This document shows positions 23,401 through 57,131 of a DNA stretch of 64,000 nucleotides, piece by piece. The notes below the pieces were generated by a model. The model did not search any database. It was not told the origin of the DNA and saw nothing but the letters and a program-made list of their open reading frames with translations. The number at the start of each line of letters is the position of its first letter. The first letter of the stretch is position 1. The stretch comes from an uncultured virus (IMG/VR IMGVR_UViG_3300001682_000650) (Duplodnaviria; Heunggongvirae; Uroviricota; Caudoviricetes): the IMG/VR virus record IMGVR_UViG_3300001682_000650. One strand, given 5' to 3'. The translations under genes and the position numbers were made by a program.

Positions 23401-26400
23401 CTCGGATTTTTCTTCACATATTCACTGATAGACAGGTTAGCTTTCTGAGCCAGAGAAGCTTTAACCGATTTTGGGAGTGCCACAGTACTGATATCAAACG
23501 AAGGAGCAACTACCTGGCTGGCAAGGCTATCCACGAATCCGTCAACAAAACCGGACACCATTTTAGACAGAGCAGAAATTATCTTATTGGTAGTCTTCTT
23601 AGGTATTTGGAGTTTTGTAGGGTCTATTGACCCAGAGATATGAGACTCTATAACAGTGCTCGCATTTTCAAGTAACTTCTTGATGGCGTTACCGAACGGC
23701 TCAGATACATCCTTCAGGTTTGTGATTTTAACACTACCTATCTGAGCGTCCAAGCTATCAAGTTGTTCTTGAGTCAGCTTGATGTTCAAGGTTTCAGCGT
23801 CAACATTTACTATTTTTGCTGATAGCTCACGCAATGAGTTTACAAACTCTACTATCTTTTCGTTGACAGCGTTCATTACAATAGTTGACGCTGTTACACC
23901 GTTTTCAGCGTTACGGAACTCTTGTCTGAGTTCTTCGAGAGTAGAGTTCAACTCACTGACAGGGAGGTTGACCTCTAAAGCTTTCGCCGCAGCGTCTATT
24001 CTATCCAATTCCTTAGCAAATGCTTCTACAGACGCCTTGAACCCAACAGCACCTGAACGCTTCAGTGCATTGTTAACTGCGTCAAAGCTTTTACCAAGAT
24101 TGCTTATGCCCTTCTGCATAGGTAGCAGTTTTGAGTCGAGCACTGTCTTTTTAACTTCTAAAATATTTCTAAGCGCCGCACCAATATCTGAAAAGTTTTT
24201 ACCAAGTTCCTTGATGTTACTTCTGATATCAGCAAATACTTCCGTTGGAATATCTCCACCTTTGGACTTTGTAATCGAACCGATCTGGCCGGCTGTTTCA
24301 GAGAACTTGACAACAATATCCTTAATAATAGCAATAGATGTTTCCTGTAATGTGTTTATGCTGGCAGATATCGCAGAAGTATCAAGCGCAGCTTTGTCTG
24401 GTTTAATACTGGACACATTAAGAAGTTTGGTAAGATCTTCAATTACACCGTTCAGTGACTTAACCAAGTTAACGGATATCTTGGTCTTCAGATTACCAAT
24501 ACTCTTTTCAATCTTTTTAACGTCAACGTCGTCTTTAAAAGAGTTGTCAAGTAAAGCGGATATGTTGTTTGTAACAGCAGTAATTTGGTTAACGATTTTC
24601 TCCTGTATTGACTTAACAATCGATTCTGACAAGTTGCTACCTGAAATAGTTTTATGGATCTCTTCTTTGGAAACGGATGTCCATTTCTTACCTTCAAATT
24701 TGTTTAACAGATCTGACTCGCCTTTGAGTATCTCTGCCAGCCTTTTCTCCTTCCTGATATAATAATCTGTACTGTTCTGAGAGATATCATAAAATTTTTT
24801 GAATGTGTCCAAAGACGACAGATCGCCAGAAGGTATTATACCTTCTAGTTTGTAATCTTTATAATCTTTTCTAAATGCTTCGAGCTTTAACGCTTCCTTA
24901 ATAGGCGTGTCAAACTCTAATTTATTTCTACCTAGAACAGTTCTTAGGTTTCTTCTGGCTTCTGCTTCTTGCCTTATCCGATGATTTATGTATTTTTCAA
25001 CATCCTCGAAACTGCCCTTTCCTTCTCTAATGTCTCGAAGTATATTAATATGCCCTATATTTTCTTCATTTAATGTGTTAAGTATTTGTTTCTTGTACAT
25101 TTCTTGATATTTCTTAATATCAAATTCCCCGCCACCTGCACCACCAGCAGACGCAATCTCTTCTCCTATATGCTCAAGGGATTCTTTAAAATAATCAACA
25201 GCAACACGCAACTGCCTCATTGTATTAGTGCCTACGTTATTTAGGGCTCCGTTAATATCCATGAAGATATTACCGAGCTTATTCAATTCTTTTTGGAAAG
25301 GAAGCAGTTGAGATGTAATTGAGCCTTTGTCCATGCTGGCTATGCTATCAATTACCTTTGCAACATCATTGAACTTTTTATTGAGGGATGAGAGCTTCTT
25401 TGAAAAGTCCCCAGAATTAGGAAGACTTCCTGATTTAATATTACCAAGAGCTTCTGTAATGTCAACGAAACCATTACCGATTTCTGCAATAGCTTTTTGC
25501 AGAGGAAGTAATGTTGAATTTATAGATGTCCTTTCCTCAGACAATATGGTGCTTAATGCGTTCGAAAGTTTTTTAAATGAGGCATACAGAGCTTTAACCC
25601 TGTCTTTAATACCTCTCATGGTGTCAAGGTTTGTACTTGCAAGTGCTTCTTCAAGTTCCTTCATTATTTTAGCAGAGACACTTTCTACTATATTTTTCTT
25701 AGATACTTTTGTCTTCCCGCCCTTAATATCAATACTCGCTATTTCTTCAGCAACGGTGGCAAGCTTCTGCATGAAAGCATCAACAGATTTTTGAAGCTTT
25801 TCAAGCGATTCTGTTGACACGCTGTCATTTATCTCATCAATGACATTTGAAAGTTTTTCAAATCCGATACCTTCTCCTTGCATCTTAGCCTTAATTTGCT
25901 CAAGCCCACCTATGCTTACGTTATCAAGAAGTTCTGATAGAGACTTTGAGACCCTCTCTACAAAACGGTCTGTTACATCTTTAGGAACAATGGTTTTGTC
26001 CCTTTTCACTGTGTCCCGTCTGGACAATGCTTTTTCTGTTCTGTTATATTCTGCTTTGAGCGCTTTCAGCTTCGTATCCGCATCTTTGATTGAGATCGCT
26101 AATTTTTGTGTCGCTTCATCATTGCCCAAACCTTTAACAATTTTTAGACCTTCTGTCTGTTGTTTCAGAAGTTCCTCAGTGGCATCAATATCAGCTTGGA
26201 TATCCTCAAGTTTTCTTAACTTAGTCGGCTGTTTTGCCTTTTTTTTCGTTGGTTTATCATCGCTAAGTGATAATATGTTGAAACTATCCATGTAATCGAA
26301 CATGGACTTACGTATTGCTGTTTTTATCTCATCAATCTTATTGTTAAGTTCAGTAATATCAAATGAAGGCATGTCTGAAATAGTCTTAAGATCGATGTCT

Positions 26401-27416
26401 ACGATTAAGCTTGCAAATTTCTTCTGTGCCTCTTTCCATATACCATCGAATGCTTCTTTAGACAACTTAAGCCCGCCAGAGGTAGGTGAGCCTTCATACT
26501 CAATTTCGAACCCTTTTGAGATTATTTCAGACACTCTGTTACTTAAAGATGATTTGATTTTTTCAAGAGCGTCTTTGCCTAATTTTACATTAAGAGAACC
26601 CTTAGTTATTTGTATTTCAAGGCTCTCAACAACAGCAGACTTAATCTGTTTCCGAATATTTTCTATTGCTTTTGTGGATAGGTCAGAAATAGGTGAGCTG
26701 TTCTCATGAAACTTGAGAATTCTTTCATACTCTTCAAGCTGTTTAACAATAGAAGCGCTAAAGCTTTTAATTCTTTCATTAACAGATTCTTTGAGTTTAT
26801 GCAGGTCATCTGCAAAAGTCTTTCCTTCTGGCAGTACAGACACTTCTCCAGTAACTTTAGATACTACATCTTGAATTGCCTTAACTTTCTCTGCGTATTG
26901 TTTTGTATTATCAGACAATACTGCCTCAAATGAAGACTTAATAGAGCTACTTACCTGTGCGTATTCATTTTTAGTTTTACTCGGGAGGTCTGTGAGTATG
27001 TCAAATGTATTTGAAAAATTCTTTTTAATATCTGTAAAGAACTTCTTTGTTGAGTTCTTTATAGCTCTTTCAGCTTCAGTAATATCTCCTTCTTGGAACA
27101 AAGCCTTACGAAAATCAAGCCCATTCACATAGTCAGTGATAGCTCTGTTTATTTCACTTTGAATGACAGACATTACTTTTGTGTCAATGGCTTCTGTTGT
27201 GGCATTATCCCGCCCGATACTTTTCGATAGAGCATCAAAGCTCTTCTTGATCTTTTCTTCAAGGCTGGTGGTATTATTAGACCACTTAACAAATTCAGTA
27301 TTAAGCTTAGCAACTTTATCGGCAAATTCTTGTAAACTCGATAACCCAGAACTAAACTCTATGTCAACATCAGCATTTAGATTGTGCTGTACGTTTTCGT
27401 CTGCCAAACAAATCAA
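17433..27416 (-). CDS. tail tape measure protein
   Basis: 3327 aa, helical/coiled-coil composition, directly after the tail chaperone pair; TMP-like core about 1500-1950 aa; hydrophobic segments. Confidence 0.9.
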   Translation of the reverse strand: MICLADENVQHNLNADVDIEFSSGLSSLQEFADKVAKLNTEFVKWSNNTTSLEEKIKKSFDALSKSIGRDNATTEAIDTKVMSVIQSEINRAITDYVNGLDFRKALFQEGDITEAERAIKNSTKKFFTDIKKNFSNTFDILTDLPSKTKNEYAQVSSSIKSSFEAVLSDNTKQYAEKVKAIQDVVSKVTGEVSVLPEGKTFADDLHKLKESVNERIKSFSASIVKQLEEYERILKFHENSSPISDLSTKAIENIRKQIKSAVVESLEIQITKGSLNVKLGKDALEKIKSSLSNRVSEIISKGFEIEYEGSPTSGGLKLSKEAFDGIWKEAQKKFASLIVDIDLKTISDMPSFDITELNNKIDEIKTAIRKSMFDYMDSFNILSLSDDKPTKKKAKQPTKLRKLEDIQADIDATEELLKQQTEGLKIVKGLGNDEATQKLAISIKDADTKLKALKAEYNRTEKALSRRDTVKRDKTIVPKDVTDRFVERVSKSLSELLDNVSIGGLEQIKAKMQGEGIGFEKLSNVIDEINDSVSTESLEKLQKSVDAFMQKLATVAEEIASIDIKGGKTKVSKKNIVESVSAKIMKELEEALASTNLDTMRGIKDRVKALYASFKKLSNALSTILSEERTSINSTLLPLQKAIAEIGNGFVDITEALGNIKSGSLPNSGDFSKKLSSLNKKFNDVAKVIDSIASMDKGSITSQLLPFQKELNKLGNIFMDINGALNNVGTNTMRQLRVAVDYFKESLEHIGEEIASAGGAGGGEFDIKKYQEMYKKQILNTLNEENIGHINILRDIREGKGSFEDVEKYINHRIRQEAEARRNLRTVLGRNKLEFDTPIKEALKLEAFRKDYKDYKLEGIIPSGDLSSLDTFKKFYDISQNSTDYYIRKEKRLAEILKGESDLLNKFEGKKWTSVSKEEIHKTISGSNLSESIVKSIQEKIVNQITAVTNNISALLDNSFKDDVDVKKIEKSIGNLKTKISVNLVKSLNGVIEDLTKLLNVSSIKPDKAALDTSAISASINTLQETSIAIIKDIVVKFSETAGQIGSITKSKGGDIPTEVFADIRSNIKELGKNFSDIGAALRNILEVKKTVLDSKLLPMQKGISNLGKSFDAVNNALKRSGAVGFKASVEAFAKELDRIDAAAKALEVNLPVSELNSTLEELRQEFRNAENGVTASTIVMNAVNEKIVEFVNSLRELSAKIVNVDAETLNIKLTQEQLDSLDAQIGSVKITNLKDVSEPFGNAIKKLLENASTVIESHISGSIDPTKLQIPKKTTNKIISALSKMVSGFVDGFVDSLASQVVAPSFDISTVALPKSVKASLAQKANLSISEYVKKNPRLAGPELISHMMETSIYDMSALFYEKTRANQTDLISQYRDSIKNIKVVYDNSPVDYMVERIGTVQTVIINKIKEIMQKQFSHIEKEIKAMKVAPVGFNYIPTDVKREQPSKTRIIKSFGASTEMPRGNVSLQIPYRVGNDISLSDLYQRAGGVGQGGNNSKLLNSILSTVRYIMAGTLLRAPMGAMQQGWQSSKQLELALTKVANNLRGLTVEENRSYTDSRIEKIFELGLQKQYDYLQNLSESDAKEREYSEISRLISGGLKKDIQSLALRYIIPQESVGEMFQYASRSTRNPYEALALTEAATKLYAAEPDVGTPEDVAKKLQSLSVIWGVSGFDIGKYASMIYSAGTQVSASSQDILSGLVRGGPSLRQAMTGGTMDHPELEALRKQIAKEIDEETKKRLLAEYDNLEKEITFSYALPLISLFEEATSRTGSETGRAYEQIFRALRSPEVHKVFDRIIEGRPELEYLRPYTRVQDPTTGIVQNVAKNQVKVLVDFLDALPELRKTDAQEADALLVKLTGRYSGAFEALTSVIKEFSDKWPEYAGEDGAIFTNWAEAIRSSSDEKMNQDIIALNETQAKRIQQIPVMWGITIDEVMSNFSDEVNLVVDTIMTMLRAVHDNASAVATIFKSLVNILIGYGIRNLGGKAIDSFNSKILAEERDRMIQPWKDRMQEAVGRRFETQKSLMDQEKKIEKATTAYDKAREKYFNLTGIPLDKLSETSQNTPRPTTVRGYLEMNDENVERALLALYSLQTDTEQIGEYTAESNNVGFNIIDANPLTKLVKKLLGGEKLSRNEISNARRRLMKYSGQLASFGEDLFNSDKDVRLVTNSEGATGQIGKLKEYEKELSEAIATVESATVLSRYLGDPKAIKNTPKSEIIERAKNYLSMLYDVAGSDTDVQMLRELRDQITDTSSEDYRSITKDIEEAESRAETRLGIGNIEDALTKYADNDVDFNTLQEVMLAELIKSIKNGQPLNIDLDDRIGIARSEYEELTKTLTAYERQYGSDSSEASLARRKRDVVGRRIELLESGRLSNSDISELETQLKEASRVSLNPENLEDNKFTLERLRDQIAILEDEAEQALRKSNQALDTYSEVVKRKADMIKTLTEVDTEMVSIEQTINNIVSAYADMGASVTKGSKSGTTRGGIKNIFEATKLKEKTSSTKESFVKTLRHYGINMIPSEIVSVLNSGDSEKIKSRFGAVAPIVEKAWELINDADSKAERYVKNMTRQSEIEQRINKLKDSSGIPFMDTGDIDKEAVKKNVADKYKAVGKLVDEESIMAEVNEQLKSMSESSSGIELKKLSVELANLRREADKLATSSRTAASAQAELSEAQMRANAEFEAGGSSEDYIKKTKEAQEFKDKGIGSSILTSIFAGLKGMLINWAIGAITTFITSTVAEAVQPKDIKARRAYETAKEMAVLMDTDKEWQKAWERIKAFFAPGGKYSIVDFIESILGIDLYPKSTAKQAIAYAQSPEEREAIVKKYLEEYYKASKETNISETRMNTLAEKMIIDAFSSKGTDAESFAASLEAIQTAIEYWESWLSTLTAMNDTELIAERLDATLVGLSANSDKMINIEKEFAKKQLAHYEEALSGIEAMIYQSELVLAGGAEKVQQLANEAGVPFDVMLNKIKNDPEFKMKKADSEIMKILESERNSIVKAIAGYRETLENVFTEFSKHLSYISEVLSSETAKAEAIASQNRLTRWGLGIADYSATAVNQEIQALHDKALADKKAADTARKEFETMIRPVIDKEVVRINREIYNGLMSGGAFDSEKLLTDLEAVIETRRIREAEVLQLESSANASMLQYRKSLEEMPYVASETVMNMAAGRADAEARIAIAQAQLRGLGEDSLYERLITRRKLEEQNVAFSVRIRDLEKIISEGSPNSEKYQLEILDLLAKQNENLVAIRKLNENRVSFGLPDGLRVITYNDILQATATDRTLSGQRGNINVSVTFDHANFADPNSISRVERDLTDAINRAVNRAIR

Positions 27417-36642: not shown

Positions 36643-38007
36643 AACTGAATAAAGTATGTCTGTTAGCCCTTTTTCCTTATCCCATATAAAAGACTGACTT
36701 ACAGCTAAAGCGCCAACATAGCCACTTTCAAAATGCCATACGTCAGTTCCTGTTATAGACGAAAGACTTCTTATCTTGATACCATTGACTTCTCTAACAT
36801 GTTCACTGTGGAGGTGTGCCCCATGCCACTCTCTGAATTTTGTACGCCCCCACGCTTCTGAAGCCTCTACCTGCATATTGCCCTCTATTCGCTTCTTTTC
36901 TTTGTCAAGATGTGAGTAACCTATAAGGCAATTTCCAAATTCAATATACTTTCTTGCCATTGGGCTTGTGTCTACAAAGACAGAATCACTATTGCGATAC
37001 CAACAGTGAAGGCTATATACCGCATAAAAACTAATCATTTTATCATGATTGCCTGGTACGCAAAGAACATGGACAGGAGCTATATTGCTCAGCAAATCTA
37101 TGGCTCTTATCAGTAATTCAAGCCCTTTTGTGAACAACTTTTGCCATCTTAAATCATTATTTTGAAGAGTTCCTGCTGTGGTAGTACCGGATATGGTATC
37201 AAAATTAAAGAAATCGTTTCCTACAGGGAATAGAATCTTTTCAAATTTCAAGTGAGATGTTCTTTCAATTACGTCATCTATAACACTCATGAATCTTTTT
37301 TGGGCTATTTTATGGTCGTAATCCTCTCCAGATTCAGGAGCCCATGCAAGCTTTCCAAGATGGAGATCCACTATTGGAACCTCAAGCATCTTTGATGCGT
37401 CTTTAATTACAGGTGATATTGGCTTAGGTATCGTATATGTTTTAGCAAAATCCTCAAAGAATTCTTCAGTAGCATCACGTATCAGGTCTATGTAGTATTC
37501 TTTTTTACGATACTTTTCAACTTCACTTTTTAATTGTCTTATCTCGGCTTCCTGAAGTTTAATAAAATACTTTTCTTTTTGACGTTCAAGTGTCCTGCCT
37601 ACAAGCTCATCAACATCTGTATTTAAAATCTCTTCGTCAGTATAAGGTACGTCATCGTGTGTTATGCCAAAAGCATTTCTAACAAGCATGAAGTCTCTTC
37701 TCGGAATATTGAGTTTTCTGCATATTTGATTTATAGTTAAGTGATTTTCCCCACAGTAAAGAATCTTAAGCTCCTTAAGAGTTGTCTTCATTATTTTGAC
37801 AGATCTCTTCTTAGAGCTGACGACATAGTAATTTTCAAATTCAGCTATTTCTGGAGTTATTTCTTCTTCACCGCTTATATCTTCCCTGTTAGGGTCTCTT
37901 AAGAATCTTGACTTTAATGTATTGTAGTTAATATTCAAATTTCTTGATATTTCACTGTATGAAAGTCCTTCACTTCTCATTCGTTTGGCTTCTTCAAACC
38001 AACTCAT
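36634..38007 (-). CDS. HTH-containing calcineurin-like metallophosphoesterase
   Basis: N-terminal HTH (GLSYSEISRNLNINYNTLKSR); motifs DLHLG, GND, GNHD, HLH. Confidence 0.8.
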   Translation of the reverse strand: MSWFEEAKRMRSEGLSYSEISRNLNINYNTLKSRFLRDPNREDISGEEEITPEIAEFENYYVVSSKKRSVKIMKTTLKELKILYCGENHLTINQICRKLNIPRRDFMLVRNAFGITHDDVPYTDEEILNTDVDELVGRTLERQKEKYFIKLQEAEIRQLKSEVEKYRKKEYYIDLIRDATEEFFEDFAKTYTIPKPISPVIKDASKMLEVPIVDLHLGKLAWAPESGEDYDHKIAQKRFMSVIDDVIERTSHLKFEKILFPVGNDFFNFDTISGTTTAGTLQNNDLRWQKLFTKGLELLIRAIDLLSNIAPVHVLCVPGNHDKMISFYAVYSLHCWYRNSDSVFVDTSPMARKYIEFGNCLIGYSHLDKEKKRIEGNMQVEASEAWGRTKFREWHGAHLHSEHVREVNGIKIRSLSSITGTDVWHFESGYVGALAVSQSFIWDKEKGLTDILYSVVT

Positions 38008-39731
38008 CTTATTGCACTTCCTCTCCGTGCGCCAGCTATTAAAGGCATAGAGAAATACTTAGTATCTTCTGGAGGGTCAGAACTGCATAACCAAATGAAT
38101 CCCATGCGAGCGTCAGAATAGTCTTTACCTACAATCTTGTCCCCCACCTTACTGTCATGGTCAATTTTATTTCCGTTGATTAGCTTGATAGCTTTTAACT
38201 CCTCGTTTGGTGTACAAACTTTTGGATCTCTTGGTTTGTAGTCGAGCAATTCTACGTTTCCGCCATATATTAAGGATTTGCCATTTTGATAAATCTTTAA
38301 CTGGAATGCATTTGTAAAAGCTTTATCTTCTGCGTCTACTCCATAACTAATCAATCGCTGTACGGTTTCAGCAGAATTGAACTTATCGAAAAGCGCTTTC
38401 TTTACATATACCTGCTGGCATATCTGTTCTATAATATCTGCAATGTTAAGAAGGTCAACTGGCAATCGTTCTTGTTTATTTGGTCTCCATTCTAGTATAA
38501 GATCCTCCACCGGTTTATTTATCCACTTAACAATGGTTTCTCCATTTTCAACGACTTGTGTTTCAACTGCCTCGCCGTGCCCTAAGCATAAAACGTAGCT
38601 ATCTCCGGTAACACCGCAGTCTCCACCAAGATAGTAAGTGTACTGTGGGTCAAGTTTCAGGTTATGTAGCTGTAATCCAACGAAATGTCTCTGTTCCCCG
38701 TTTACAAGAGTCCTTGTAGTTATAATGTCCTCTACCACAAGACCAAAATGCTGAGAATGTTTCCCCCACACAGTAACCTCATCTATTCTCTCAGGGAATT
38801 TGAACAATCCTTCAGAATGGGAGGGCGGTTTACATTCAAGCATCATTTCCGCTGTTTCTGGGTCATCCTCATACTGTTTATTAAAGGTTTCCCTGCTTAC
38901 CTTAAGGTTAACTTCCCATGTGGCACCTCTAATAGACCACATCGTACCACTTGTGTCCTTTACCGCTTCAGAGTACTTAGTGTACATTGGGCAGTTTTCA
39001 CTTCTTGGGTAAGAAATAAAGATCATGAGATATTTTGAGTTGTAACGTGTTGACGCAGATGTTTTTAATATATCGTATCCGTTCTTGGCATTTTCAGGAG
39101 TATACCCGCCATACTCGTCAAAGATGATTACCAATGGGTTAAATCCTTCGTATGCTTCTGCTTCAGAGTGGGCGGAGTGGCAAGTAATATTCTTATAGAA
39201 TCGGATTTTGTTTCGAGTAACTTGGAATTCATTATAAGCTATGGGTTGGCGATGCTTTACTTCTGTAAACCAGGAGCAATTTCTGAGGCGGGCTTTTAAC
39301 TTTTTAAAGAATACCTCATTTGCCTGGTTAGAGTTTATGGCGACATTGATAAGGTCTATAGGCTCATCCTGACCAAAGTTAAAGTAAGCGTGTGGATCTC
39401 TAATGCAACATAGCAGGTACGACATGTAGGCCATGAATCCAGAGATAAGGAAATCTTTTCCTGCCCCTTTGCCGAAAAGGACAATAGCCTCTAACACTTC
39501 TCTGAGTTCTTCTTTACAAAATTTAGGATCTCCGGTTAGCTTCCACCACATTATTTGGTTTAATGTCTCAAGCAATTCTGTTTGTTTTCCCTCATACGGA
39601 GACTCTTTCAAGAACCTATCGGATTTAAAGAATGTAAGCAAATCAACGGGATATTCTCTCCAGATCCCGTTGCTTTCAACACTTTCTTCTATTAGGCTTA
39701 AAAAATCATTGAATAAATTGGTTACTTCCAA
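38004..39731 (-). CDS. terL: terminase large subunit
   Basis: Walker A-like GKGAGKD, Walker B IIFDE, coupling motif ISYP, nuclease acidic residues (GGDCG..GD, FDKFNS, KDYSDA). Confidence 0.9.
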   Translation of the reverse strand: MEVTNLFNDFLSLIEESVESNGIWREYPVDLLTFFKSDRFLKESPYEGKQTELLETLNQIMWWKLTGDPKFCKEELREVLEAIVLFGKGAGKDFLISGFMAYMSYLLCCIRDPHAYFNFGQDEPIDLINVAINSNQANEVFFKKLKARLRNCSWFTEVKHRQPIAYNEFQVTRNKIRFYKNITCHSAHSEAEAYEGFNPLVIIFDEYGGYTPENAKNGYDILKTSASTRYNSKYLMIFISYPRSENCPMYTKYSEAVKDTSGTMWSIRGATWEVNLKVSRETFNKQYEDDPETAEMMLECKPPSHSEGLFKFPERIDEVTVWGKHSQHFGLVVEDIITTRTLVNGEQRHFVGLQLHNLKLDPQYTYYLGGDCGVTGDSYVLCLGHGEAVETQVVENGETIVKWINKPVEDLILEWRPNKQERLPVDLLNIADIIEQICQQVYVKKALFDKFNSAETVQRLISYGVDAEDKAFTNAFQLKIYQNGKSLIYGGNVELLDYKPRDPKVCTPNEELKAIKLINGNKIDHDSKVGDKIVGKDYSDARMGFIWLCSSDPPEDTKYFSMPLIAGARRGSAIR

Positions 39732-40802: not shown

Positions 40803-41096
40803 TAACATTTTAAGGGGGAATTTTATGTTAACATTAGTTCAAAAATTGAACCGCCTTCTTATATATAATACTTTTTATTATATATATATANNNNNNNNNN
40901 NNNNNNNNNNNNNNNNNNNNNNNNNNNNNNNNNNNNNNNNNNNNNNNNNNNNNNNNNCCTTTAAGTTAACATTTTAAGGGGGAATTTTATGTTAACATTA
41001 GTTCAAAAATTGAACCGCCTTCTTATATATAATACTTTTTATTATTATATATATATAGAAGGCGGTTCATTTTTTAGACTATAAAAAATGGTAAAA
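40803..41096. repeat. inverted copies (C and D) of the 15.8-16.1 kb AT-rich palindromic repeat, separated by an N-gap
   Basis: reverse complement of the unit at 15824-16119; contains TGAACCGCCTTCT..(TA)n..AGAAGGCGGTTCA. Confidence 0.85.
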
Positions 41097-41827: not shown

Positions 41828-41913
41828 AGTAACACCTCATTTACTTTTTGCCCGCCACCCCAAGCGGGCGGGGAAATGAAAGTCCTCCAGATATACTGTA
41901 GGAATACAATTTA

Positions 41914-41942
41914 AGTATAATAGTAATTAAATATAGTGTCAA
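41914..41942 (-). promoter_or_regulatory. sigmaA-type promoter
   Basis: minus strand TTGACA-N17-TATACT upstream of 41261..41827. Confidence 0.8.
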
Positions 41943-42245
41943 CGCATCAAATTTCAAGTTTCAGTCTGCAAACCACCCACCCATGCGGATATCACAATAT
42001 TATTTCATTGTGCTTCTATTAAACTTCCATTTTTCTGGAAACTGATTTTCAAAAAATTCCCGTGTGATACCGCACGGTACCCACGCCTGAGTCGCTCTAC
42101 GAGCGACTTCCAGGCACTGGGTGGGGGCGGCAATTTTGCACGAAGTTTTTTTTGCAAAACACTTGCAATCCATGCCGATTTGTGGCGGTATGAAACTGCG
42201 GTTCGGGAAACTGAATCGACACAATTTAATATGGAGGTTTATACT

Positions 42246-42596
42246 ATGAGTAAAAAGTTTACGGAGAAAGAGTTGCTGAGTCTGTTGGAAGGTATTAAGA
42301 TTCCGTCAAACGAATCGGCTGTAAAGGCTATCGGTGTTGATATCCTTGAAACTGAGCCGTACGAAAAAACGAACGTACGTTATCTTAACAACAAATTCAA
42401 TCCTCTGAAGCTGTCAACTGAGTACTTCGACTTATCAGTAACGATAAGCGTTACTGAAGGTCAAGCCGCTAAAATAGCGACTTTGGTCAAGGATTCTTAC
42501 CAGCAACATAAGCTAAACGCCGCTGTAGCCGCTTTGGTGGCTGCTGGATTTACTCCAGAACAGGCACAGGCAATCCTGAAAAAGAAGGGGAAATAA
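42246..42596 (+). CDS. hypothetical early protein
   Basis: ATG at 42246 after GGAGG; followed by a terminator. Confidence 0.7.
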   Translation: MSKKFTEKELLSLLEGIKIPSNESAVKAIGVDILETEPYEKTNVRYLNNKFNPLKLSTEYFDLSVTISVTEGQAAKIATLVKDSYQQHKLNAAVAALVAAGFTPEQAQAILKKKGK

Positions 42597-42613
42597 ACCC
42601 CTTCTTCTTTTTT
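42582..42613 (+). terminator. intrinsic terminator
   Basis: AAGAAGGGG-AAATAAA-CCCCTTCTT then a T-run. Confidence 0.75.
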
Positions 42614-42839
42614 GCCCTTTTTTCTGCATTGCCGTATTTTTTTTTATGCACTATTATCGGCGGTTGTGAAAACCCTATGTTTTATCGGCGGTTTGAAAAA
42701 CCCTGGATTTGCTAACCGCTCATAATACTTGTTATGAGCGGTCACAATGTCGAGATATAAACACGACCGCCTTCCGGCATGGACAGGGGCGGAGATAAAA
42801 ATACCTGTCGGGCGGTGCCTGCCGGGGAAGGAGGAAAAA

Positions 42840-43340
42840 ATGAATAGATTCAAACTGCAAGCCTACAAACAAGAATTCCCCTTTTTGGGGGAAGTTATCG
42901 GGGACGAAATCCCCGACTCCGTCCGTATAAAGCGGGCGGATGAGAACTTGCTGAAGTTTATACCCACGAACTCGTTACACGTGGGGAGCTTGGGAAGGAC
43001 AGAGGTTAATGAAAAAATTCATTTCATCTTGTCCGACGGCAAGGTTCTATACAATGTTGTAGTTAGGAAAGAGGAATACAGTTCCAACTACAACAGTGAC
43101 ACCCATTACCACGAGTGGGGCGAGACCGTGCTAGAAGCTATCGATCGGCATGGTGTAGCCGAAAGCCTTGCCTTTATCATCGTCGAGGAATATTATCTCA
43201 ACGATTGGGAAGGCCAGGAATACACAAAAGAATACACCTTCACCATCTACAAGACCCCGAAAGGAACCTCTTTCGGGGCAGAGATAAAGAAGGCAAGGGC
43301 GCAAGCCCTTGCGGAAGTCCGTGTAGAAGCGGACTTCTAA
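42840..43340 (+). CDS. hypothetical early protein
   Basis: ATG at 42840 after AAGGAGG; higher GC than the late genes. Confidence 0.7.
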   Translation: MNRFKLQAYKQEFPFLGEVIGDEIPDSVRIKRADENLLKFIPTNSLHVGSLGRTEVNEKIHFILSDGKVLYNVVVRKEEYSSNYNSDTHYHEWGETVLEAIDRHGVAESLAFIIVEEYYLNDWEGQEYTKEYTFTIYKTPKGTSFGAEIKKARAQALAEVRVEADF

Positions 43341-43390
43341 AGCGAATTCCGGCGGGATGCCGGAAATAACCGCAGGTAAGCGGGATGCAA

Positions 43391-43436
43391 GCCTGGCAGC
43401 AGATACGTTTTGTGTCTGTTGCTGGGCTTTTTTTTT
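43391..43436 (+). terminator. intrinsic terminator
   Basis: GCCTGGCAGCAGATAC / GTGTCTGTTGCTGGGC stem followed by a long T-run. Confidence 0.75.
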
Positions 43437-43942
43437 GTTTTTGCCCCGAATTGATACTATCCATTTTTAATTGCGTTTTATCGGGCATATAAAAAGCCCG
43501 AGTTTTAATCGCTCATATCGTGCAGAATTTTGACTTTGTTCGGAAAGAAGCTCTTAAAGACAACTGTATGAATATTTAGAAGCGAGTGGGGTTTAATCCC
43601 CTCCCCCTTTTTTATATAACCGCCACCCTTTAACAAATAGCGACGTCATTATCGGCGTCGCTGAAACCATGAGTTTTATATTTTTTTATAAATATTCAGG
43701 GCTTTTATAGTGTCCGGTTCATTATCGGGCATTATAAAAACCCTGAAAATGAAAGATGAATATTGAAATCCTGCATATTATTGGTGGTATTTTTTATTAC
43801 CATCGATATTTTTCAATACAATTTGAAAAATATGCAGGATTGCACTATACCAACTTGCAAAATAGTGTGGAATTTATACCCCGACGGGCGGTATTTAATC
43901 CGACTTAACTATTTTGCATGGTGATCGGTATATATAACCAGG

Positions 43943-44488
43943 GTGAACTCGCCCCAGATTGGTGGGGTGTTACATAGGTGTGCTATGTATCATGGGTTCC
44001 GTGGTAAATCCCCCTGCCACGTAAATACGGAATGGAGATCTCGGTATATCGGGCTTGGGATATACAGTGGGCGTAACACTTCAAAAAACGCTATTGGCGG
44101 TGGGAGACCGTACCGTACTGTTACTGCACAGTTACGTAAGATCGAATAAGCAGCGGAGCAATCTATAGGGCACTCCGTAATAAACCGTGCATATTATCAT
44201 AGGCTACAGCATAGTTTCTGAGAAATCAAGGGGTTTATCCGGCATTTCGGCATATTTCTATGCACTATCTACCCTTTCACTATCTCTTTAGTTACTATGT
44301 TCGTAGGTACATACTATGATACGAGTCATGACGATAAACATTATGGTAAGCGGAGGTGAGAGTCCCCCGCCCACCGTTTTTGGGAAGGCTCCTGAATACG
44401 TTGGAACCATTGCAGGTGTAAGTAAATCAGCGCTGCGAAAGCCATTCCTATAGTGATAATACTATGGCTTATAATTAGTAGGGTTCAC
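43943..44488 (+). ncRNA. candidate large structured ncRNA (~550 nt)
   Basis: no credible CDS; GTGAACTC/GGGTTCAC end pairing; many internal hairpins; terminator immediately downstream. Confidence 0.5.
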
Positions 44489-44504
44489 TTATTATTGTTT
44501 ATAC

Positions 44505-44548
44505 AAAGCCCTATATGTTTTCTTATTGATTGCATATAGGGCTTTTTT
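44505..44548 (+). terminator. intrinsic terminator
   Basis: AAAGCCCTATATG / CATATAGGGCTTT stem ending in a T-run. Confidence 0.75.
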
Positions 44549-44651
44549 AATATGGCTGGAAAGACCGCAAGAGGTCCGCCCCGCCACCCCCGATTTTTGG
44601 GGAATTGAAGTAAAGCCTCTCTATATGGAGAGGTCGCATGGAGGTGTTGAT

Positions 44652-44999
44652 ATGGCTTTTGATCTTTCACTCAATAAAGTCATAGAGAAATACCCACGCA
44701 TCGTCGCACATCTTATCGCTGAAAGCTATGGGTATTTTACTCCGATCTCCGCAGCCAATGCTATAAAACGTGCCAAGCGTAATGAGCCATGTTTCTGTGA
44801 GTGGTACTGTGATTGCGCTCGTAGATATGGAAACATGTACGACGAGGACAATGTTAGAAGGGTCACCAAAGAGATACTGAATCAGACTATACAGAATCGC
44901 CACTACCATAGAGGTAGTTGGGCTGATTACAGGAGTGCACGTAGAATTGTTGACAGAGCTATTACTGGAGAACATCCTGTTTTAGCAAGCTGGTTCTGA
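44652..44999 (+). CDS. hypothetical protein
   Basis: ATG at 44652 after GGAGGTG. Confidence 0.65.
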   Translation: MAFDLSLNKVIEKYPRIVAHLIAESYGYFTPISAANAIKRAKRNEPCFCEWYCDCARRYGNMYDEDNVRRVTKEILNQTIQNRHYHRGSWADYRSARRIVDRAITGEHPVLASWF

Positions 45000-45174
45000 T
45001 CCCCGCCACCCTGGATTTTGGCGGTCGAATATAGATAGCTTACCGAGCATGGACAGCTTGGATGTAAGTGGCTATCAAACGTGCATAGTGGTTTTTGGTA
45101 AGGCTATAGCACGTGTCCAAGACAGGGTTTTATAGCGTTCCCTCAAAAAACGCTATCTTTCATTGGAGGTTATT

Positions 45175-45309
45175 ATGTCTATTCAGTACAAAGGCTATGT
45201 CATTTATCTAATTAATTACGGGTGGCGGATAAAGGGCACCAATTATTACCCCGCCACCCTTGAAGAAGCATTTGAAATTATAGACCTATGGAAGGAGGTC
45301 GCATTATGA
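45175..45309 (+). CDS. small hypothetical protein (44 aa)
   Basis: GGAGG SD, MSIQYKGYVIY...; coupled to the next gene; below the ORF-track cutoff. Confidence 0.55.
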   Translation: MSIQYKGYVIYLINYGWRIKGTNYYPATLEEAFEIIDLWKEVAL

Positions 45310-45530
45310 GAAACATTACTAGCCTTAAGCCAAAGAAAAACAAGGACATTTTTAAGCGTATCCCTAAGTTCTCTGAAGTATTCGTTCCATTTGAGATTGC
45401 TGTAGATTACTTGCATGATCTGTATGCAGGTGTAGATCTCCCCGCCACCCTCACAAAAACTGTGGTACAGCAGAAGCTGGACAAGGCTTATTCCATGGGT
45501 GACACTCCTTGGAGAGTAGTCATTGGATAG
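45306..45530 (+). CDS. hypothetical protein
   Basis: ATG at 45306 after AAGGAGG. Confidence 0.55.
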   Translation: MRNITSLKPKKNKDIFKRIPKFSEVFVPFEIAVDYLHDLYAGVDLPATLTKTVVQQKLDKAYSMGDTPWRVVIG

Positions 45531-46428: not shown

Positions 46429-47930
46429 CAATAAAACAGTCCCGCATTCTCCCACCTCTTAGGTGGGGGTTAGGGGCGTGGTTATTCTCATTTAAGAAAG
46501 GCAGGTGATATCAATAAAAATTACATCTTCGTATAGTGTAAAAATCAATAATTATACAAAAATTCTAAGACATACAGTAAATATTTATAGAAAAGCTGTA
46601 TCATTTTTTATTGATGTCATCGATACAGAATGGGAGAGCTTTTCAAGTATAACCAATACTAATGGCTCTGTATTAATAGCGGAAAGACTTACTCATTCAA
46701 CAAAAAACAATCCCTTGGTAAAACACAATTTTGATGAGAAGTTTTATAAATTTCCTTCATACCTGAGAAGAGCTGCTATTGCAGATGCCTTTGGAATTGT
46801 GTCCAGTTACAAGAGTAATCTTGCTAATTGGAAAGCATCTGGCAGCAAAAATAAACCTCCAAGGCTTAAGAAAAACCATAGCTGTAACCCGTGCTGTTAT
46901 TATGACAATATGTTCGAGGGAAATTGTTATAGCAAAACTGCTAAAATCAAATATTTTAACGGTAAAGATTGGCTATGGCTACCCATAAATTTATCTTCCC
47001 AAGACATAAAGTATTTGCAGAATAAATGGTCTCACTGTAAGCCTTCAGCCCCCATATTGGAGCGTAGGCACGGGAAGAACTATCTCAGGTTCAGTTTTAC
47101 TGAAAAAGTAAGCTTAAATAAAACACCAATCGAAGAACAAAAAATTGTTTCTGTTGACCTTGGACTCAACAATCATGCGGTTTGCTCAGTTATGGATGCT
47201 AAAGGAACTGTCTATTCGAGAAAGTTTATTAATCTCAAATATGAAAAAGACCTTTTAAATCACAAACTGAACAAACTTAAAAAGTTCCAACGTCAGCACG
47301 GAAGCAAGAATAGTTTGTCAAGGTGGTCATACATAAATAATTTGAATGATAATATTTCAAGGCAGGTAGCTCATCAAATAGTTGAGTTCGCCACATCACA
47401 GAATGTTGATGTTGTTGTTTTTGAGTATCTCAAAACCGAAGGCAAAAAACATGGCTCGAAAGCTCAGCAGCTTGCTTTATGGCGTAAGAGGCAAATACAG
47501 CAAATAGTAGAACATCAAGGCCATCGTAATGGTATACGTTTTTCAAGGATAAACCCAAACGGTACCAGTAAGTATGCCTATGATGGTTCTGGGCTTGTAG
47601 TACGCAGTAATAATAATTACAGTTTATGTACCTTCAGTAACGGAAAACAATATAACTGTGACCTGAACGCCAGTTACAATATTGGTGCAAGATATTTTAT
47701 CAGAGAAATACTAAAACCCTTTTCAGCGATGGAAAGGTCGCATTTGGAGGCGAAAGTTCCTTCAATAGCGTTTAGAACCAAATGCACCCTTACTACATTA
47801 ATTAGCTTAAACAAAGTATTAGTAGCTTCCGCTGCCTAATTACTCGGTTTAAGCTGTATCTGTAGAAGGCAGTCCCTAAGGTTGTTTAACTATAAGGGAA
47901 GCCCCCACTTCTAAAGTGGGGGAAGTTCAC
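46429..47930 (+). mobile_element. IS200/IS605-family element (tnpB only, IS1341-like)
   Basis: inserted 3' of TTGAA; left hairpin CCCACCT-CTT-AGGTGGG; right hairpin CCCCCACTT-CTA-AAGTGGGGG ending TTCAC; flanks rejoin into one reading frame. Confidence 0.8.
46505..47839 (+). CDS. tnpB: TnpB RNA-guided endonuclease
   Basis: RuvC motifs VSVDLG, VVFEYL, NCDLNASYNIG. Confidence 0.9.
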   Translation: MISIKITSSYSVKINNYTKILRHTVNIYRKAVSFFIDVIDTEWESFSSITNTNGSVLIAERLTHSTKNNPLVKHNFDEKFYKFPSYLRRAAIADAFGIVSSYKSNLANWKASGSKNKPPRLKKNHSCNPCCYYDNMFEGNCYSKTAKIKYFNGKDWLWLPINLSSQDIKYLQNKWSHCKPSAPILERRHGKNYLRFSFTEKVSLNKTPIEEQKIVSVDLGLNNHAVCSVMDAKGTVYSRKFINLKYEKDLLNHKLNKLKKFQRQHGSKNSLSRWSYINNLNDNISRQVAHQIVEFATSQNVDVVVFEYLKTEGKKHGSKAQQLALWRKRQIQQIVEHQGHRNGIRFSRINPNGTSKYAYDGSGLVVRSNNNYSLCTFSNGKQYNCDLNASYNIGARYFIREILKPFSAMERSHLEAKVPSIAFRTKCTLTTLISLNKVLVASAA

Positions 47931-48117: not shown

Positions 48118-48192
48118 GGCTCGTTAGTCAAGCGGTAAAGACGCTGCCCTCTCAAGGCAGAAACAGAGGTTCAAACCCTCTACGAGTCACCA
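48118..48192 (+). tRNA. tRNA-Glu(CTC)
   Basis: cloverleaf: GGCTCGT/ACGAGTC acceptor, CTGCC-CTCTCAA-GGCAG anticodon arm, GGTTCAAAC T-loop, encoded CCA. Confidence 0.9.
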
Positions 48193-48284
48193 TAACGGGA
48201 ATAGTTGAATTATTGGAGTGACGCCCATAGCAAATGCGGGATAAGGAAGTCGTTAAAGATCAAACCCCCGCTCCCGTTTTATAT

Positions 48285-48359
48285 GGCCCGTTAGTCAAGC
48301 GGTAAAGACGCCACATTCTCAGTGTGGAAACAGAGGTTCGAATCCTCTACGGGTCACCA
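48285..48359 (+). tRNA. tRNA-Glu(CTC)
   Basis: GGCCCGT/ACGGGTC acceptor, CCACA-TTCTCAG-TGTGG anticodon arm, GGTTCGAATCC, CCA. Confidence 0.9.
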
Positions 48360-48404
48360 GACAAGGCAAAAGCCTTGATTATTTTTTATTAGGAGGTAGT
48401 TTTC

Positions 48405-48896
48405 ATGAAAACTGCGGTATGTGTATTTACGGAAAATGGGTGGGTGCCTGTTATCGCTCTGGGTGAAGGCACGATTACTGGCGATCAAGTTACCAATGAG
48501 GTAGCTCCCCAGGAAGCTATTGCCACCCCTGCATTTGCAATTGGTGACTCTGTTGAGGTTAACGGCAGGCTTTATCAAGGCAGTGCTGTTGTCGAGCGCC
48601 TTGACGGTGGCGATGTATTGGCAAGGGCAGGTAATGGTAAGCTGTACCGTTACAGCAAGGTTGACCAGGATACTGGCGTAATCACCAAGATCTCCTCTGA
48701 TCCTGCGCCTAAGAAAACCCTCACTTCTGATGACTTCGAAGAAGGTGAAGAAGTAGAGATTAACGGTCGTTTGTTCAAGGGGTACGGTACTGTTGAAACC
48801 ATTGACGGTGCTGATGTCCTTGTCAGAGCAGACAATGACAAGCTGTACCGTTACAGTCCGATAGACTTGGCAGCAGGAATGCTGATTAAAGCCTAA
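48405..48896 (+). CDS. hypothetical protein with two tandem SH3/KOW-like repeats
   Basis: 'F..GD/E.VE.NGRL..G...VE..DG.DVL.RA.N.KLYRYS..D' occurs twice; AGGAGG SD. Confidence 0.7.
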   Translation: MKTAVCVFTENGWVPVIALGEGTITGDQVTNEVAPQEAIATPAFAIGDSVEVNGRLYQGSAVVERLDGGDVLARAGNGKLYRYSKVDQDTGVITKISSDPAPKKTLTSDDFEEGEEVEINGRLFKGYGTVETIDGADVLVRADNDKLYRYSPIDLAAGMLIKA

Positions 48897-48929
48897 TCCC
48901 AAAACCCCCATAGCCAATGGGGGTTTCAT

Positions 48930-49004
48930 GGCCCGTTAGTCAAGCGGTAAAGACGCCACATTCTCAGTGTGGAAACAGAGGTTCGAATCCTCTACGGGTC
49001 ACCA
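48930..49004 (+). tRNA. tRNA-Glu(CTC), identical to 48285..48359
   Basis: exact 75-nt duplicate with CCA. Confidence 0.9.
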
Positions 49005-53478: not shown

Positions 53479-53861
53479 TTGTTCAACAGCTCAGGAATAA
53501 CTAAAATTAAGTAACAACAACTGTTAAGCTTTTTAGTTTTTGTTTACCCTTTAAATGAGGTTTCAAANNNNNNNNNNNNNNNNNNNNNNNNNNNNNNNNN
53601 NNNNNNNNNNNNNNNNNNNNNNNNNNNNNNNNNNNNNNNNNNNNNNNNNNNNNNNNNNNNNNNNNNNNNNNNNNNNNNNNNNNNNNNNNNNNNNNNNNNN
53701 NNNNCTAAACACTATAAAGTTTAGTGCTACGGTGTAGGGAGCGTTATACCCGAAGTTAAGCCTTTGGACTGCTAAGAAAACCTGAGTAGCTTTAGTGAAA
53801 AGGAGCAGGATGAACAAGGAATCAAACATAATACTATGTTTTTATAGTTTTATGGTAACGG
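53479..53861 (+). mobile_element. IS607-type element, copy 1 (interior hidden by an N-gap)
   Basis: left end TGTTCAACAGCTCAGG and right end ...AAGGAATCAAACAT...GGTAACGG shared with copy 2; GG at both junctions. Confidence 0.7.
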
Positions 53862-54421: not shown

Positions 54422-54838
54422 CTGTTCAACAGCTCAGGAATAACTAAAATTAAGTAACAACAACTGTTAAGCTTTTTAGTTTTTGTTTACCCTTTAAATG
54501 AGGTTNNNNNNNNNNNNNNNNNNNNNNNNNNNNNNNNNNNTAGTGAAAACCAAACCATCAGCGGTAGTCATTTAACACTTAAGGTGTAGTGAAAATCTTA
54601 AAGAACTTATATCTGTGAAGAGTGTGGTTGTACTATAGACAGAGACTTAAATGCAGCCATTAACCTGAGCAGATATGTAGCCTAAACACTGTAAAGTTTA
54701 GTGCTACGGTGTAGGGAGCGTTATACCCGAAGTTAAGCCTTCGGACTGCTACGAAAACCTGAGTAGCTTTGGTGAAAAGGAGCAGGATGAACAAGGAATC
54801 AAACATAATACTATGTTTTTATAGTTTTATGGTAACGG
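54422..54838 (+). mobile_element. IS607-type element, copy 2, with tnpB 3' remnant and omegaRNA-like right end
   Basis: same ends as copy 1; 54602..54685 encodes RTYICEECGCTIDRDLNAAINLSRYVA* (TnpB Zn finger and RuvC-III). Confidence 0.75.
54602..54685 (+). pseudogene. tnpB: tnpB C-terminal fragment
   Basis: C..CG...DRDLNAAINL motif; no TnpB-like sequence in the bases immediately upstream. Confidence 0.75.
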
Positions 54839-55547: not shown

Positions 55548-55829
55548 GTCAACTACCCACCACTTAGTCTTTAACAAGACTTGAAGTGGGGGCTTGTAGT
55601 TTAAGCCCAGTTGATTAGCCTAAGCCTATAAGTCAATATTAGAATGCATAGTTACCTACAGGTGCTCCACAAGCTTGTAGCTCTAAGGATAGCAATTAAA
55701 CATCTCTGATGGGTGGGAGAAGTGTTGCTATTTAAAAACCTAATATAACCTTGGCGATGTGGACCTACCCACTAAGCTTTGCTTAGTGGAGATAGTTAAG
55801 TAGTATTACTATTTTAAGGAGTATGCCTT
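55548..55829 (+). ncRNA. IscB omegaRNA (HEARO-like) scaffold
   Basis: ~280-nt structured leader with GTTGATTAGCCTAAG, GTGCTCCACAAGC..CTCT and TTGGCGATG motifs typical of IscB omegaRNAs. Confidence 0.75.
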
Positions 55830-57131
55830 ATGGTATATGTAATAAGTAAGTCAGGCAAACCGCTTATGCCTACAAATAGGCATGGAAAGGTTAGAATCTT
55901 ACTAAAAGAGAAAAGGGCTAAAGTGGTACAAAATAAGCCTTTTACTATTCAACTTTTGTATGATTCAAAAGAATATACACAGCCTATTAGCTTAGGCATT
56001 GACTCAGGTTACACCTATATTGGCTATTCTGCTATCACAGAAGATATTGAGCTAATATCAGGTGATGTTGAGCTTTTATCTGGTCAATCAGAAAGACTTA
56101 AAGAAAAAGCTATGTATAGAAAACAAAGAAGACAAAAGCTACGATACAGAAAGCCTCGCTTTGATAATAGAAAAAGAGCTGAGGGTTGGTTAGCTCCAAG
56201 CTTACAACACAAATATGACAGTCATATTAGATTCATTGAAAAGCTTAAAAAGATATTACCAATAACAAATATTACAATAGAGGTAGCAAGTTTTGATACT
56301 CATAAGCTTAAAAATCCAAGTGTTAGTGGAGAAGATTATCAAAATGGCGAACAGGAGGGTTTCTTTAACTTAAGGGAATATATCTTATACAGAGATAATT
56401 ATACATGCCAAATCTGTGGAGCCAAGGATAAGCCACTAGAGGTTCATCATATAGGCTTTTGGAAGGGAGATAGAAGTAATAGACCAGCTAATTTATTAAC
56501 AGCCTGCATTACTTGTCATGTTCCAGCTAATCATTTAGAAGGAGCTAAGCTATGGGGATTAAAACCAAGCAATAAAGGATTCAAGGAAGCTACCTTTATG
56601 AGTATGGTTAGATGGCGATTAGTTAATGTGCTGAACTGTAATCACAGCTATGGATATGCAACAAAGTCTAAAAGAATTGCATTAGGCTTAGATAAAAGCC
56701 ATTCAAATGATGCATTTGTAATAGCTGGTGGAGAAAATCAAAAGAGAGCCAAAGCTATAATGTTTAAGCAAATAAGAAGAAATAATAGAAGCTTAGAGAA
56801 ATTCTACGATGCTAAATATATCGACATCAGAACTAGTAATAGAGTATCAGGACAAGATTTATTTAATGGCAGAAGGTGTAGAAATAAAAACTTAAACGAA
56901 GAAAATCTGCATAAGTATAGAGGCAAAAAACTAAGCAAAGGTAAAAGAAGTATTCGCACGAAGAGGTACTTTTATCAGCCAAATGATTTAGTTAAGCTAG
57001 ATGGTAATATTTATACAGTAAAAGGAACTCAAAACAAAGGAGCTTATGTGGCTCTAAAGAACCACAGCAAAGTTGTAAGAGTAGAGTTACTAACTCCATA
57101 CAAATTTATGAGTGGATTAGTGGCCATATAG
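55830..57131 (+). CDS. iscB: IscB RNA-guided endonuclease
   Basis: PLMP N-terminus, RuvC-I GIDSG, Arg-rich bridge helix, RuvC-II IEVASFD, HNH (CQIC..EVHH..N..CITCH), RuvC-III SHSNDA. Confidence 0.92.
   Translation: MVYVISKSGKPLMPTNRHGKVRILLKEKRAKVVQNKPFTIQLLYDSKEYTQPISLGIDSGYTYIGYSAITEDIELISGDVELLSGQSERLKEKAMYRKQRRQKLRYRKPRFDNRKRAEGWLAPSLQHKYDSHIRFIEKLKKILPITNITIEVASFDTHKLKNPSVSGEDYQNGEQEGFFNLREYILYRDNYTCQICGAKDKPLEVHHIGFWKGDRSNRPANLLTACITCHVPANHLEGAKLWGLKPSNKGFKEATFMSMVRWRLVNVLNCNHSYGYATKSKRIALGLDKSHSNDAFVIAGGENQKRAKAIMFKQIRRNNRSLEKFYDAKYIDIRTSNRVSGQDLFNGRRCRNKNLNEENLHKYRGKKLSKGKRSIRTKRYFYQPNDLVKLDGNIYTVKGTQNKGAYVALKNHSKVVRVELLTPYKFMSGLVAI

Follow-up and report, generated by a model that had tools for sequence, protein, structure and literature searches.

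ROOL, GOLLD and OLE are regarded as RNAs that serve as scaffolds or form assemblies; OLE is encoded on the chromosome and has partner genes dedicated to it. Very few RNAs of bacteria and phages exceed 500 nt and possess a complex conserved fold; their jobs are mostly unknown, and each of these classes either did something unusual or still is an open problem. The sections of PMC5737381 dealing with ROOL report an average length of 581 nt and list no RNAs other than rRNAs, GOLLD and group II introns that surpass it in length and structural complexity. According to the same sections, ROOL and GOLLD are often found in prophages or phages and near tRNA genes. OLE is described in the relevant part of PMC3413148 as a roughly 600-nt structured RNA of anaerobic Bacillota, which is highly expressed and acts with protein partners. 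For GOLLD, ROOL and OLE, the formation of homo-oligomeric RNA-only complexes has been reported in the portion of PMC12286853 that concerns them. In the window, i.e., the whole 64,000-nt stretch of viral DNA that was analysed, a sequence-only reading had pointed to positions 43943-44548 as the gene of a large structured RNA, belonging either to a class like ROOL or GOLLD or to a new one.

The element resides on a phage genome, whose terminase (38004-39731) shares 46% identity with its counterpart in Brevibacillus phage Jenst. Structural genes on the minus strand extend to position 41827, and small early genes on the plus strand begin at 42180. The structural module also harbors a single ORF of 3327 aa (17433-27416, minus strand). 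One of the early genes (42840-43340) encodes a 166-aa protein, which belongs to no Pfam or PHROG family and for which 118 relatives were identified among 171 candidates in a large protein collection. The terminator of this gene (43389-43429) is the upstream border of a gap of approximately 1.2 kb without genes, and the next SD-led gene (111 aa) starts with the ATG at 44664, its SD being located at about 44650. In line with the earlier statement that the gap contains no SD-led ORF, no ORF longer than 68 aa exists between 43429 and 44664, and the longest one has no counterpart in L011 or the other homologues (see below). Each of the six frames over 43430-44663 is interrupted by 15 to 29 stops, and since all three stop types are present in each of them, recoding rescues no frame. 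The stretch is non-coding. The element interrupts no gene; it is intergenic, with the terminator of the 166-aa gene on one side and the next SD-led gene on the other. Its GC content (0.44 for the RNA body) had been described as elevated, which holds only in comparison with the AT-rich first half of the gap (43430-43942; GC 0.35, with many repeats and inverted repeats) and not in comparison with the neighbouring genes (0.44-0.475).

Several repeated or conserved sequences were observed around the element. The 99 nt just past the terminator of the 166-aa gene (43430-43528) are 97% identical to the related loci L001 and L004, compared with about 70-73% identity of the 166-aa protein itself. Copies of a 32-nt repeat family, at 42651, 42679, 43475, 43647, 43719 and 46078, mostly precede early genes, and the stretch 43430-43528 with its copy may be a regulator site. 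The 9-mer CCGCCACCC occurs in eight exact copies in the window, seven of these inside 41852-45450; with up to one mismatch, 23 matches were counted against 2.8 expected. Copies lie in intergenic hairpin-like modules (41852, 44581 and 45003) and within ORFs (45251 and 45442). One of them, at 44581, is part of a conserved spacer on the plus strand (44549-44663), which is located outside the RNA, is about 75% identical to the loci L001, L011 and L040, and additionally contains a hairpin (44616-33) as well as the SD and the start of the next gene. This spacer parts the RNA from the downstream gene, which differs between the window and L001: in L001 the RNA precedes a homologue of the window's 45306 gene and not the 111-aa gene. 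A TnpB-like gene of 444 aa (46505-47839; Cas12f1-like TNB domain and OrfB_IS605 in Pfam, transposase in PHROG) is situated 2 kb downstream of the RNA and separated from it by several genes.

For the identification of homologues, 75 relatives of the 166-aa protein were aligned, leading to 51 metagenomic, four viral and two genomic loci. By nhmmer, which had been suggested for this purpose, the element was found in three of the 57 loci (L001, L011 and L040), to which positions 44033-44556 of the window aligned at E values of about 1e-40. A profile of the four sequences gave E values of about 1e-175 on the homologues and disclosed no further loci among the 57; none of the four viral and two genomic loci contained the element. 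At the 54 loci devoid of it, ordinary small genes come after the 166-aa gene. Within the early region, which is variable, the RNA represents an accessory cassette. L011 and L040 are 99.7% and L001 and L011 93% identical, while the window shares 66% identity with either of them; because the three loci resemble each other so closely, there are two lineages overall. No partner gene travels with the RNA, since the upstream 166-aa gene is common in relatives lacking it and the downstream gene is not the same in the window and L001. The protein of the downstream flank gene had no relatives in the viral contig collection. A blastn search in distant mode with positions 43900-44560 against 50,697 phage records yielded no match, and exact patterns (a 21-mer of the hairpin, a 22-mer and a 23-mer of the conserved core described below) gave none in the viral contig collection, nor did the core 22-mer in the genome contig collection. 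Two loci recovered with a degenerate hairpin pattern (L058 and L059) were rejected as homologues, as they share only a small hairpin with the same loop, which sits between structural genes of a GC-rich phage. With a covariance model of the core, only its four training sequences and one hit at E=3.7 were obtained in 60 sources, and nothing was found in the genome loci G001 and G002. A 25.6-bit hit of the same model among 151 sampled genomes of the class of G001, which overlaps with the terminal part of a 505-aa ORF, was discarded as spurious; apart from it, nothing was obtained in the 153 genomes searched with this model.

The structure was evaluated by several approaches. Folding of the single sequence gave z-scores of -2.55 on the plus strand and -3.62 on the minus strand (20 shuffles each), which is weak evidence for structure and does not favour the plus strand. 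For a MAFFT alignment, 150 pairs were predicted by RNAalifold, 35 of them with changes on both sides. The consensus energy was -110.9 kcal/mol, whereas 100 column shuffles of the three distinct sequences, preserving conservation and gap patterns, reached -74.3+/-5.4 (z = -6.7). Likewise, 36 fully kept compensatory pairs stood against 19.2+/-3.7 (maximum 29) in the shuffles, while the reverse complement (-80.1; 23 compensatory pairs) remained inside the shuffle range. The single sequence folds only mildly better than shuffled controls and favours no strand, and for the alignment the column shuffles reject chance. As MAFFT misregisters parts of the 3' domain (four modes gave similar, partly wrong results), we also defined 16 non-overlapping helices, selected by eye and in part re-registered by hand, through their coordinates in each of the three distinct sequences. 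Their 98 pairs comprised 32 compensatory, seven one-sided, 54 invariant and five broken ones. When the 3' partners were slid by 1-3 nt, 1-3 pairs were compensatory and 66-79 broken, and on the opposite strand 23 of the pairs were broken (G-U turning into A-C), which favours the plus strand. The selection of helices by eye biases these counts upward, so that the RNAalifold test with column shuffles provides the fairer figure; moreover, with only two divergent lineages the counts reflect few independent events and statistics of the R-scape type are impossible. Within these limits, the fold is kept by paired substitutions on the plus strand between the two lineages.

With the exception of an inverted repeat ahead of it, the parts of the proposed RNA gene described in the following are on the plus strand. 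The RNA body (43943-44488) comprises 546 nt from the 5' to the 3' strand of the closing helix P1, or about 606 nt when counted to the terminator; the bodies in L001 and L011 measure 490 nt and 491 nt, respectively. P1 (43943-50/44481-88) is the pairing of the 8-nt ends that had been proposed, and the same helix is formed by different letters in L001 and L011, with six of the eight pairs compensatory and two invariant. It is followed by a lineage-specific 5' domain (43951-44042, approximately the first 100 nt) with three hairpins, which is replaced by a segment of about 36 nt in L001 and L011. Two stems of this domain suggested earlier were each backed by one paired change in contigs assembled from public sequencing runs, namely 43951-56/43963-68 (changes at 43955 and 43964) and 43971-77/43983-89 (43973 and 43987). 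The stems 43997-44002/44027-32 and 44001-06/44015-20 showed no variation, and the other lineage does not possess this 5' part. The conserved core begins near 44044 and extends to 44178. It contains five hairpins, P3 (44045-50/44059-64; one compensatory pair), P4 (44065-74/44088-96), P5 (44097-101/44107-11), P6 (44114-20/44129-36; two compensatory pairs) and P7 (44153-58/44173-78; two compensatory pairs). Covariation thus also agrees with the stems first drawn at 44044-50/44059-65 and 44154-58/44173-77. Between 44065 and 44117, 51 of 53 columns are invariant in the four sequences, compared with 66% identity of the whole element between the lineages. The 13-nt loop of P4 (44075-44087) is identical in all four and was altered in the run contigs by single changes at 44076 and 44086; it is a candidate binding surface. 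A target search with the conserved loops revealed one site complementary to the 13-nt loop (50639-51), just before the start codon at 50655 of a 581-aa gene. This site includes one mismatch and depends on G-U pairs, and 0.5 sites per loop were expected from shuffles, so the complementarity is probably due to chance.

Downstream of the core, a long arm (44195-44321) is closed by P8 (44195-202/44314-21), whose eight pairs are compensatory (four), one-sided (one) or invariant (three). The interior of the arm is variable in sequence between the lineages but constant in length, and its inner helix 44229-34/44271-76 is invariant. In one run contig (X19) the 188 nt at 44125-44312 are swapped for 187 other letters, and in the contig of a near-identical strain (X1) the 67 nt at 44245-44311 are swapped for 87 letters. 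The 3' domain (44326-44437, P9-P13) consists of a three-way unit and a further helix. P9 (44326-30/44339-43) has one compensatory pair, as has P10 (44343-47/44406-10), which encloses P11 and P12. P11 (44350-56/44364-70), also with one compensatory pair, is the hairpin at 44350-70 that had been noticed for its likeness to a T-loop; it was corroborated by covariation, and its invariant 7-nt loop is presumably of the T-loop type, judged by the T-loop consensus. The long hairpin P12 (44371-85/44390-404) shows nine compensatory, three one-sided, one invariant and two broken pairs out of 15, and in P13 (44411-16/44432-37) three of six pairs are compensatory. Three of the eleven stems listed in the sequence-only reading gave way to better supported pairings: instead of 44209-14/44258-63 a local hairpin (44250-54/44259-63) recurs, the bases of a presumed 2-bp GNRA hairpin (44435-42) belong to P13, and 44448-55/44460-67 is superseded by 44460-64/44476-80 and 44439-44/44465-70. 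The two latter helices, P15 and a stem interleaved with it, form a candidate H-type pseudoknot (44439-44480). Four of the six pairs of its first stem (44439-44/44465-70) are compensatory, as are two of the five pairs of P15, a third one being changed on one side. The first loop of the pseudoknot (44447-57) can pair, side by side, with the P7 loop (44164-69; five invariant pairs and one broken in L001) and the P6 loop (44120-24; five pairs with one G-U/A-U change); these are weakly supported candidate contacts. Finally, an alternative local helix (44452-56/44485-89) was detected, all five pairs of which are compensatory. It shares its 3' strand with P1, and the two helices are therefore mutually exclusive; the alternative helix could reflect a genuine switch, an intermediate of folding or mere coincidence.

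The RNA body is followed by a strong intrinsic terminator (44505-44548), consisting, as proposed, of a hairpin (44505-44545) with 13 outer pairs and a T-run, which is conserved in L001, L011 and L040. It is missing from the list of a terminator scan, because its loop is above the limit of 8 in that scan. On the 5' side, a weak promoter-like site can be recognized (43905-43934), with a -35 region at 43905-10, an 18-nt spacer, a -10 region at 43929-34 and 8 nt to P1. The same geometry is present in L001 and L011 (18-nt spacer, 7 nt to P1), and a terminator-like hairpin precedes P1 by about 70 nt in L011. A promoter scan listed no promoter on the plus strand here, and both -10 hexamers are devoid of the last T of the consensus. 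An inverted repeat with 16-nt arms (43851-66/43908-23; 88% complementary) overlaps the site and could be an operator or a leader hairpin. The contig of one metatranscriptome (X15) carries a symmetric double change at the repeat partners 43860 and 43914; neither L001 nor L011 has a counterpart of this repeat. Part of the stretch was contained in 20 of 24 public runs listed (from 17 studies), six being RNA libraries. Contigs of four runs were compared, a DNA run (X1) and metatranscriptomes of three studies (X15, X16 and X19). The RNA-library samples were labelled as bioreactor sludge and anaerobic digester. Their contigs cover 43830-44461, one loose end reaching about 44508. They cannot give the strand, the ends or the level of a transcript, and DNA carry-over in RNA libraries is possible. 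No RNA-library contig falls on 43300-43787 or 44520-45100, flanks that are covered by the DNA run, missing cover being no evidence. What these contigs show is that RNA libraries contain sequence of the element. With starts at 43830 and about 43893, two of them extend 50-113 nt upstream of P1 and thus beyond the proposed start, so that both the 5' end and the promoter are tentative.

Comparison with covariance models, the check recommended by the sequence-only reading, assigned the RNA body to no family, neither at gathering thresholds nor at E<=10. Six gathering-level matches to Rfam 15 were obtained in the window (HEARO, three tRNAs and two RAGATH-18), none of them within 43943-44548. When positions 43300-44700 (1.4 kb) were scanned against 4227 models with lax filters, 24 weak matches at E<=10 emerged, of which six fell on the terminator hairpin, 18 on the AT-rich upstream part and none on 43943-44461. 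The elements of L001 and L011 gave no Rfam match. The model of ROOL, which we take to be among the 4227, did not match 43943-44548 at either threshold or the homologues, and the same holds true for that of GOLLD. OLE gave no Rfam match, and among the 17 neighbouring proteins that were scanned no OLE-associated family was encountered. Models of group I and group II introns remained unmatched at E<=10, and no reverse transcriptase or maturase is encoded by the 17 neighbours. There was no match to riboswitch models at E<=10, and none to tmRNA or RNase P RNA in Rfam. ARAGORN reported three tRNAs only, all of them tRNA-Glu(CUC) (48118-49004), confirming the tRNA genes noted earlier at a distance of 3.6-4.5 kb downstream of the RNA. 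In L001 two adjacent tRNA-Glu(CUC) genes (6668-6823) lie 1.7 kb downstream of its RNA; as the two loci are syntenic, the proximity to tRNA genes counts as one observation and not as two. The core 22-mer did not occur in three of the six supplement files of a catalogue of phage structured RNAs (PMC10690425), and a full-text literature search, in which the sequence itself is not searchable, retrieved nothing describing this RNA. Hence, of the two options that had been left, the structured RNA reading stands and, with ROOL, GOLLD and the other Rfam 15 models unmatched, the new class applies. Among the large ornate RNAs associated with phages, a known kind, we class the element as a new family, uncatalogued as judged by the covariance models of Rfam 15 and half of the supplement files mentioned.

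Some other features of the window are worth recording. The second and third tRNA-Glu(CUC) copies do not differ over 75 nt, and the 570 bp between them include an ORF without a family (48405-48896). The HEARO RNA (55548-55768; 107 bits, gathering score 83) is located directly upstream of an IscB-like gene with RRXRR and HNH domains (55830-57131), and the two are a complete omega-RNA/nuclease pair inside a phage. The RAGATH-18 RNAs (53761-53821 and 54738-54798) scored 58.3 and 57.1 bits, respectively (gathering score 44.9). Runs of N, masked or unresolved, occupy 40891-40957, 53568-53704 and 54506-54540, each RAGATH-18 RNA residing shortly after one of the two latter.

We regard it as likely that the element, located among the early genes of a large phage of the Bacillota type, represents a stand-alone gene whose product is a large structured non-coding RNA. 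Transcription would start at about 43941-43943 from the weak, conserved promoter-like site and stop at 44548, yielding an RNA of approximately 600 nt, the ends of which would close on each other through P1. Its predicted layout comprises a nearly invariant core of five hairpins, a long arm free in sequence and a 3' domain containing both the T-loop-like hairpin and the candidate pseudoknot. A nearly invariant core amid helices that covary freely is what an RNA presenting a fixed binding or active surface would display. We infer that the RNA acts in trans as a folded molecule rather than by base-pairing along its length; the invariant part of the core (44065-44117), including the 13-nt loop, may bind a partner, either a protein or another RNA, in the early phase of infection, with the variable arm as a structural spacer. 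More tentatively, the RNA may found a new class of ornate large phage RNAs, whose core would be the active or binding centre. In this case the core might dock, for example, a tRNA or a host protein via the T-loop-like hairpin and the 13-nt loop, the RNA might assemble into a higher-order particle like ROOL and GOLLD do, and the swapped arm and the mutually exclusive end helices would provide a switchable or modular part.

Other explanations were weighed against the stand-alone gene. A very long cis-acting leader, a riboswitch or attenuator governing read-through of the terminator 44505-48, would fit the orientation shared with the following genes, the position of the terminator just upstream of them and the two covarying, mutually exclusive, switch-like helices on strand 44485-88. 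However, P1 and the alternative helix 44452-56/44485-89 both leave the terminator stem (44505-45) and the SD (about 44650) free, and no antiterminator is visible. Moreover, the gene behind the RNA is not conserved (the 111-aa gene at 44664 in the window, the homologue of the 45306 gene in L001), and the conserved spacer with its own repeated motif intervenes. Since the alternative helices spare the terminator and the downstream gene varies, and considering also that no riboswitch family was matched and that known riboswitches are several times smaller than about 550 nt, we consider a leader unlikely. The AT-rich region directly upstream (43430-43940) with its several 32-nt repeat copies and inverted repeats could suggest a transcript related to replication, either an origin primer or a regulator. 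Yet the repeats are located upstream of the RNA and not at its 3' end, a strong terminator ends the RNA, the same repeat family also precedes ordinary genes (42651, 42679 and 46078), and L001 and L011 retain the RNA but not the AT-rich stretch of the window past 43528, which makes this role highly improbable.

Equally small is the chance that the RNA is a diverged member of a catalogued large family (ROOL, GOLLD, OLE or a group I or II intron) missed by the covariance models. Its size, the phage setting and the nearby tRNA genes do resemble what the sections of PMC5737381 on ROOL and GOLLD describe, but not even a local or partial match was obtained under the lax conditions, on the window or on the homologues, and neither an interrupted gene nor a neighbouring reverse transcriptase or maturase points to an intron. 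Finally, one could argue that the element has no function of its own, being a decaying gene or filler whose structure emerged from two related sequences and selective reading, all the more as it is known from two lineages only and protein genes occupy its place at 54 of 57 loci. The column shuffles reject chance for both the energy and the compensatory pairs, a 53-nt block has stayed nearly invariant amid surroundings of 66% identity, and the indels and stops are incompatible with a frame that was coding until recently; we therefore judge this explanation to be quite improbable.

A further class of large RNA, as the stand-alone gene would represent, would be an extra test case for the role of such molecules in phages. 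The predicted RNA is small enough for chemical probing and cryo-EM, and its predicted helices offer direct mutational tests. In comparison with the known systems, the HEARO/IscB omega RNA is a structured RNA of the same phage genome, but it is positioned directly upstream of its IscB gene, whereas the element adjoins no nuclease gene and is not matched by the HEARO model. OLE is a structured RNA of similar size; unlike the situation in OLE, the neighbours of the element are not specific for the RNA, as the 166-aa flank gene has its 118 relatives and most loci are without RNA, and Rfam indicated no relationship. GOLLD is likewise a large ornate RNA but longer, as far as the relevant sections of PMC5737381 go, and its Rfam model did not match; a loop palindrome common to both lineages was not seen by eye. 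ROOL resembles the element in size (here 546 nt from one strand of the end helix to the other, or about 606 nt with the terminator) and has many helices and pseudoknots; in the element, no fewer than 16 helices, a candidate H-type pseudoknot and two candidate contacts between loops were found. It differs in that its Rfam model was unmatched even at E<=10 and in that it occurs in three phyla, while the RNA described here is known from two phage lineages only. Furthermore, ROOL possesses few highly conserved nucleotides according to the sections of PMC5737381 devoted to it, as opposed to the 53-nt near-invariant block of the element. With both ROOL and GOLLD it has in common the phage genome and tRNA genes within a few kb. 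Judged by the covariance models, the RNA is a member of neither of these two classes, but it is similar to them in kind.
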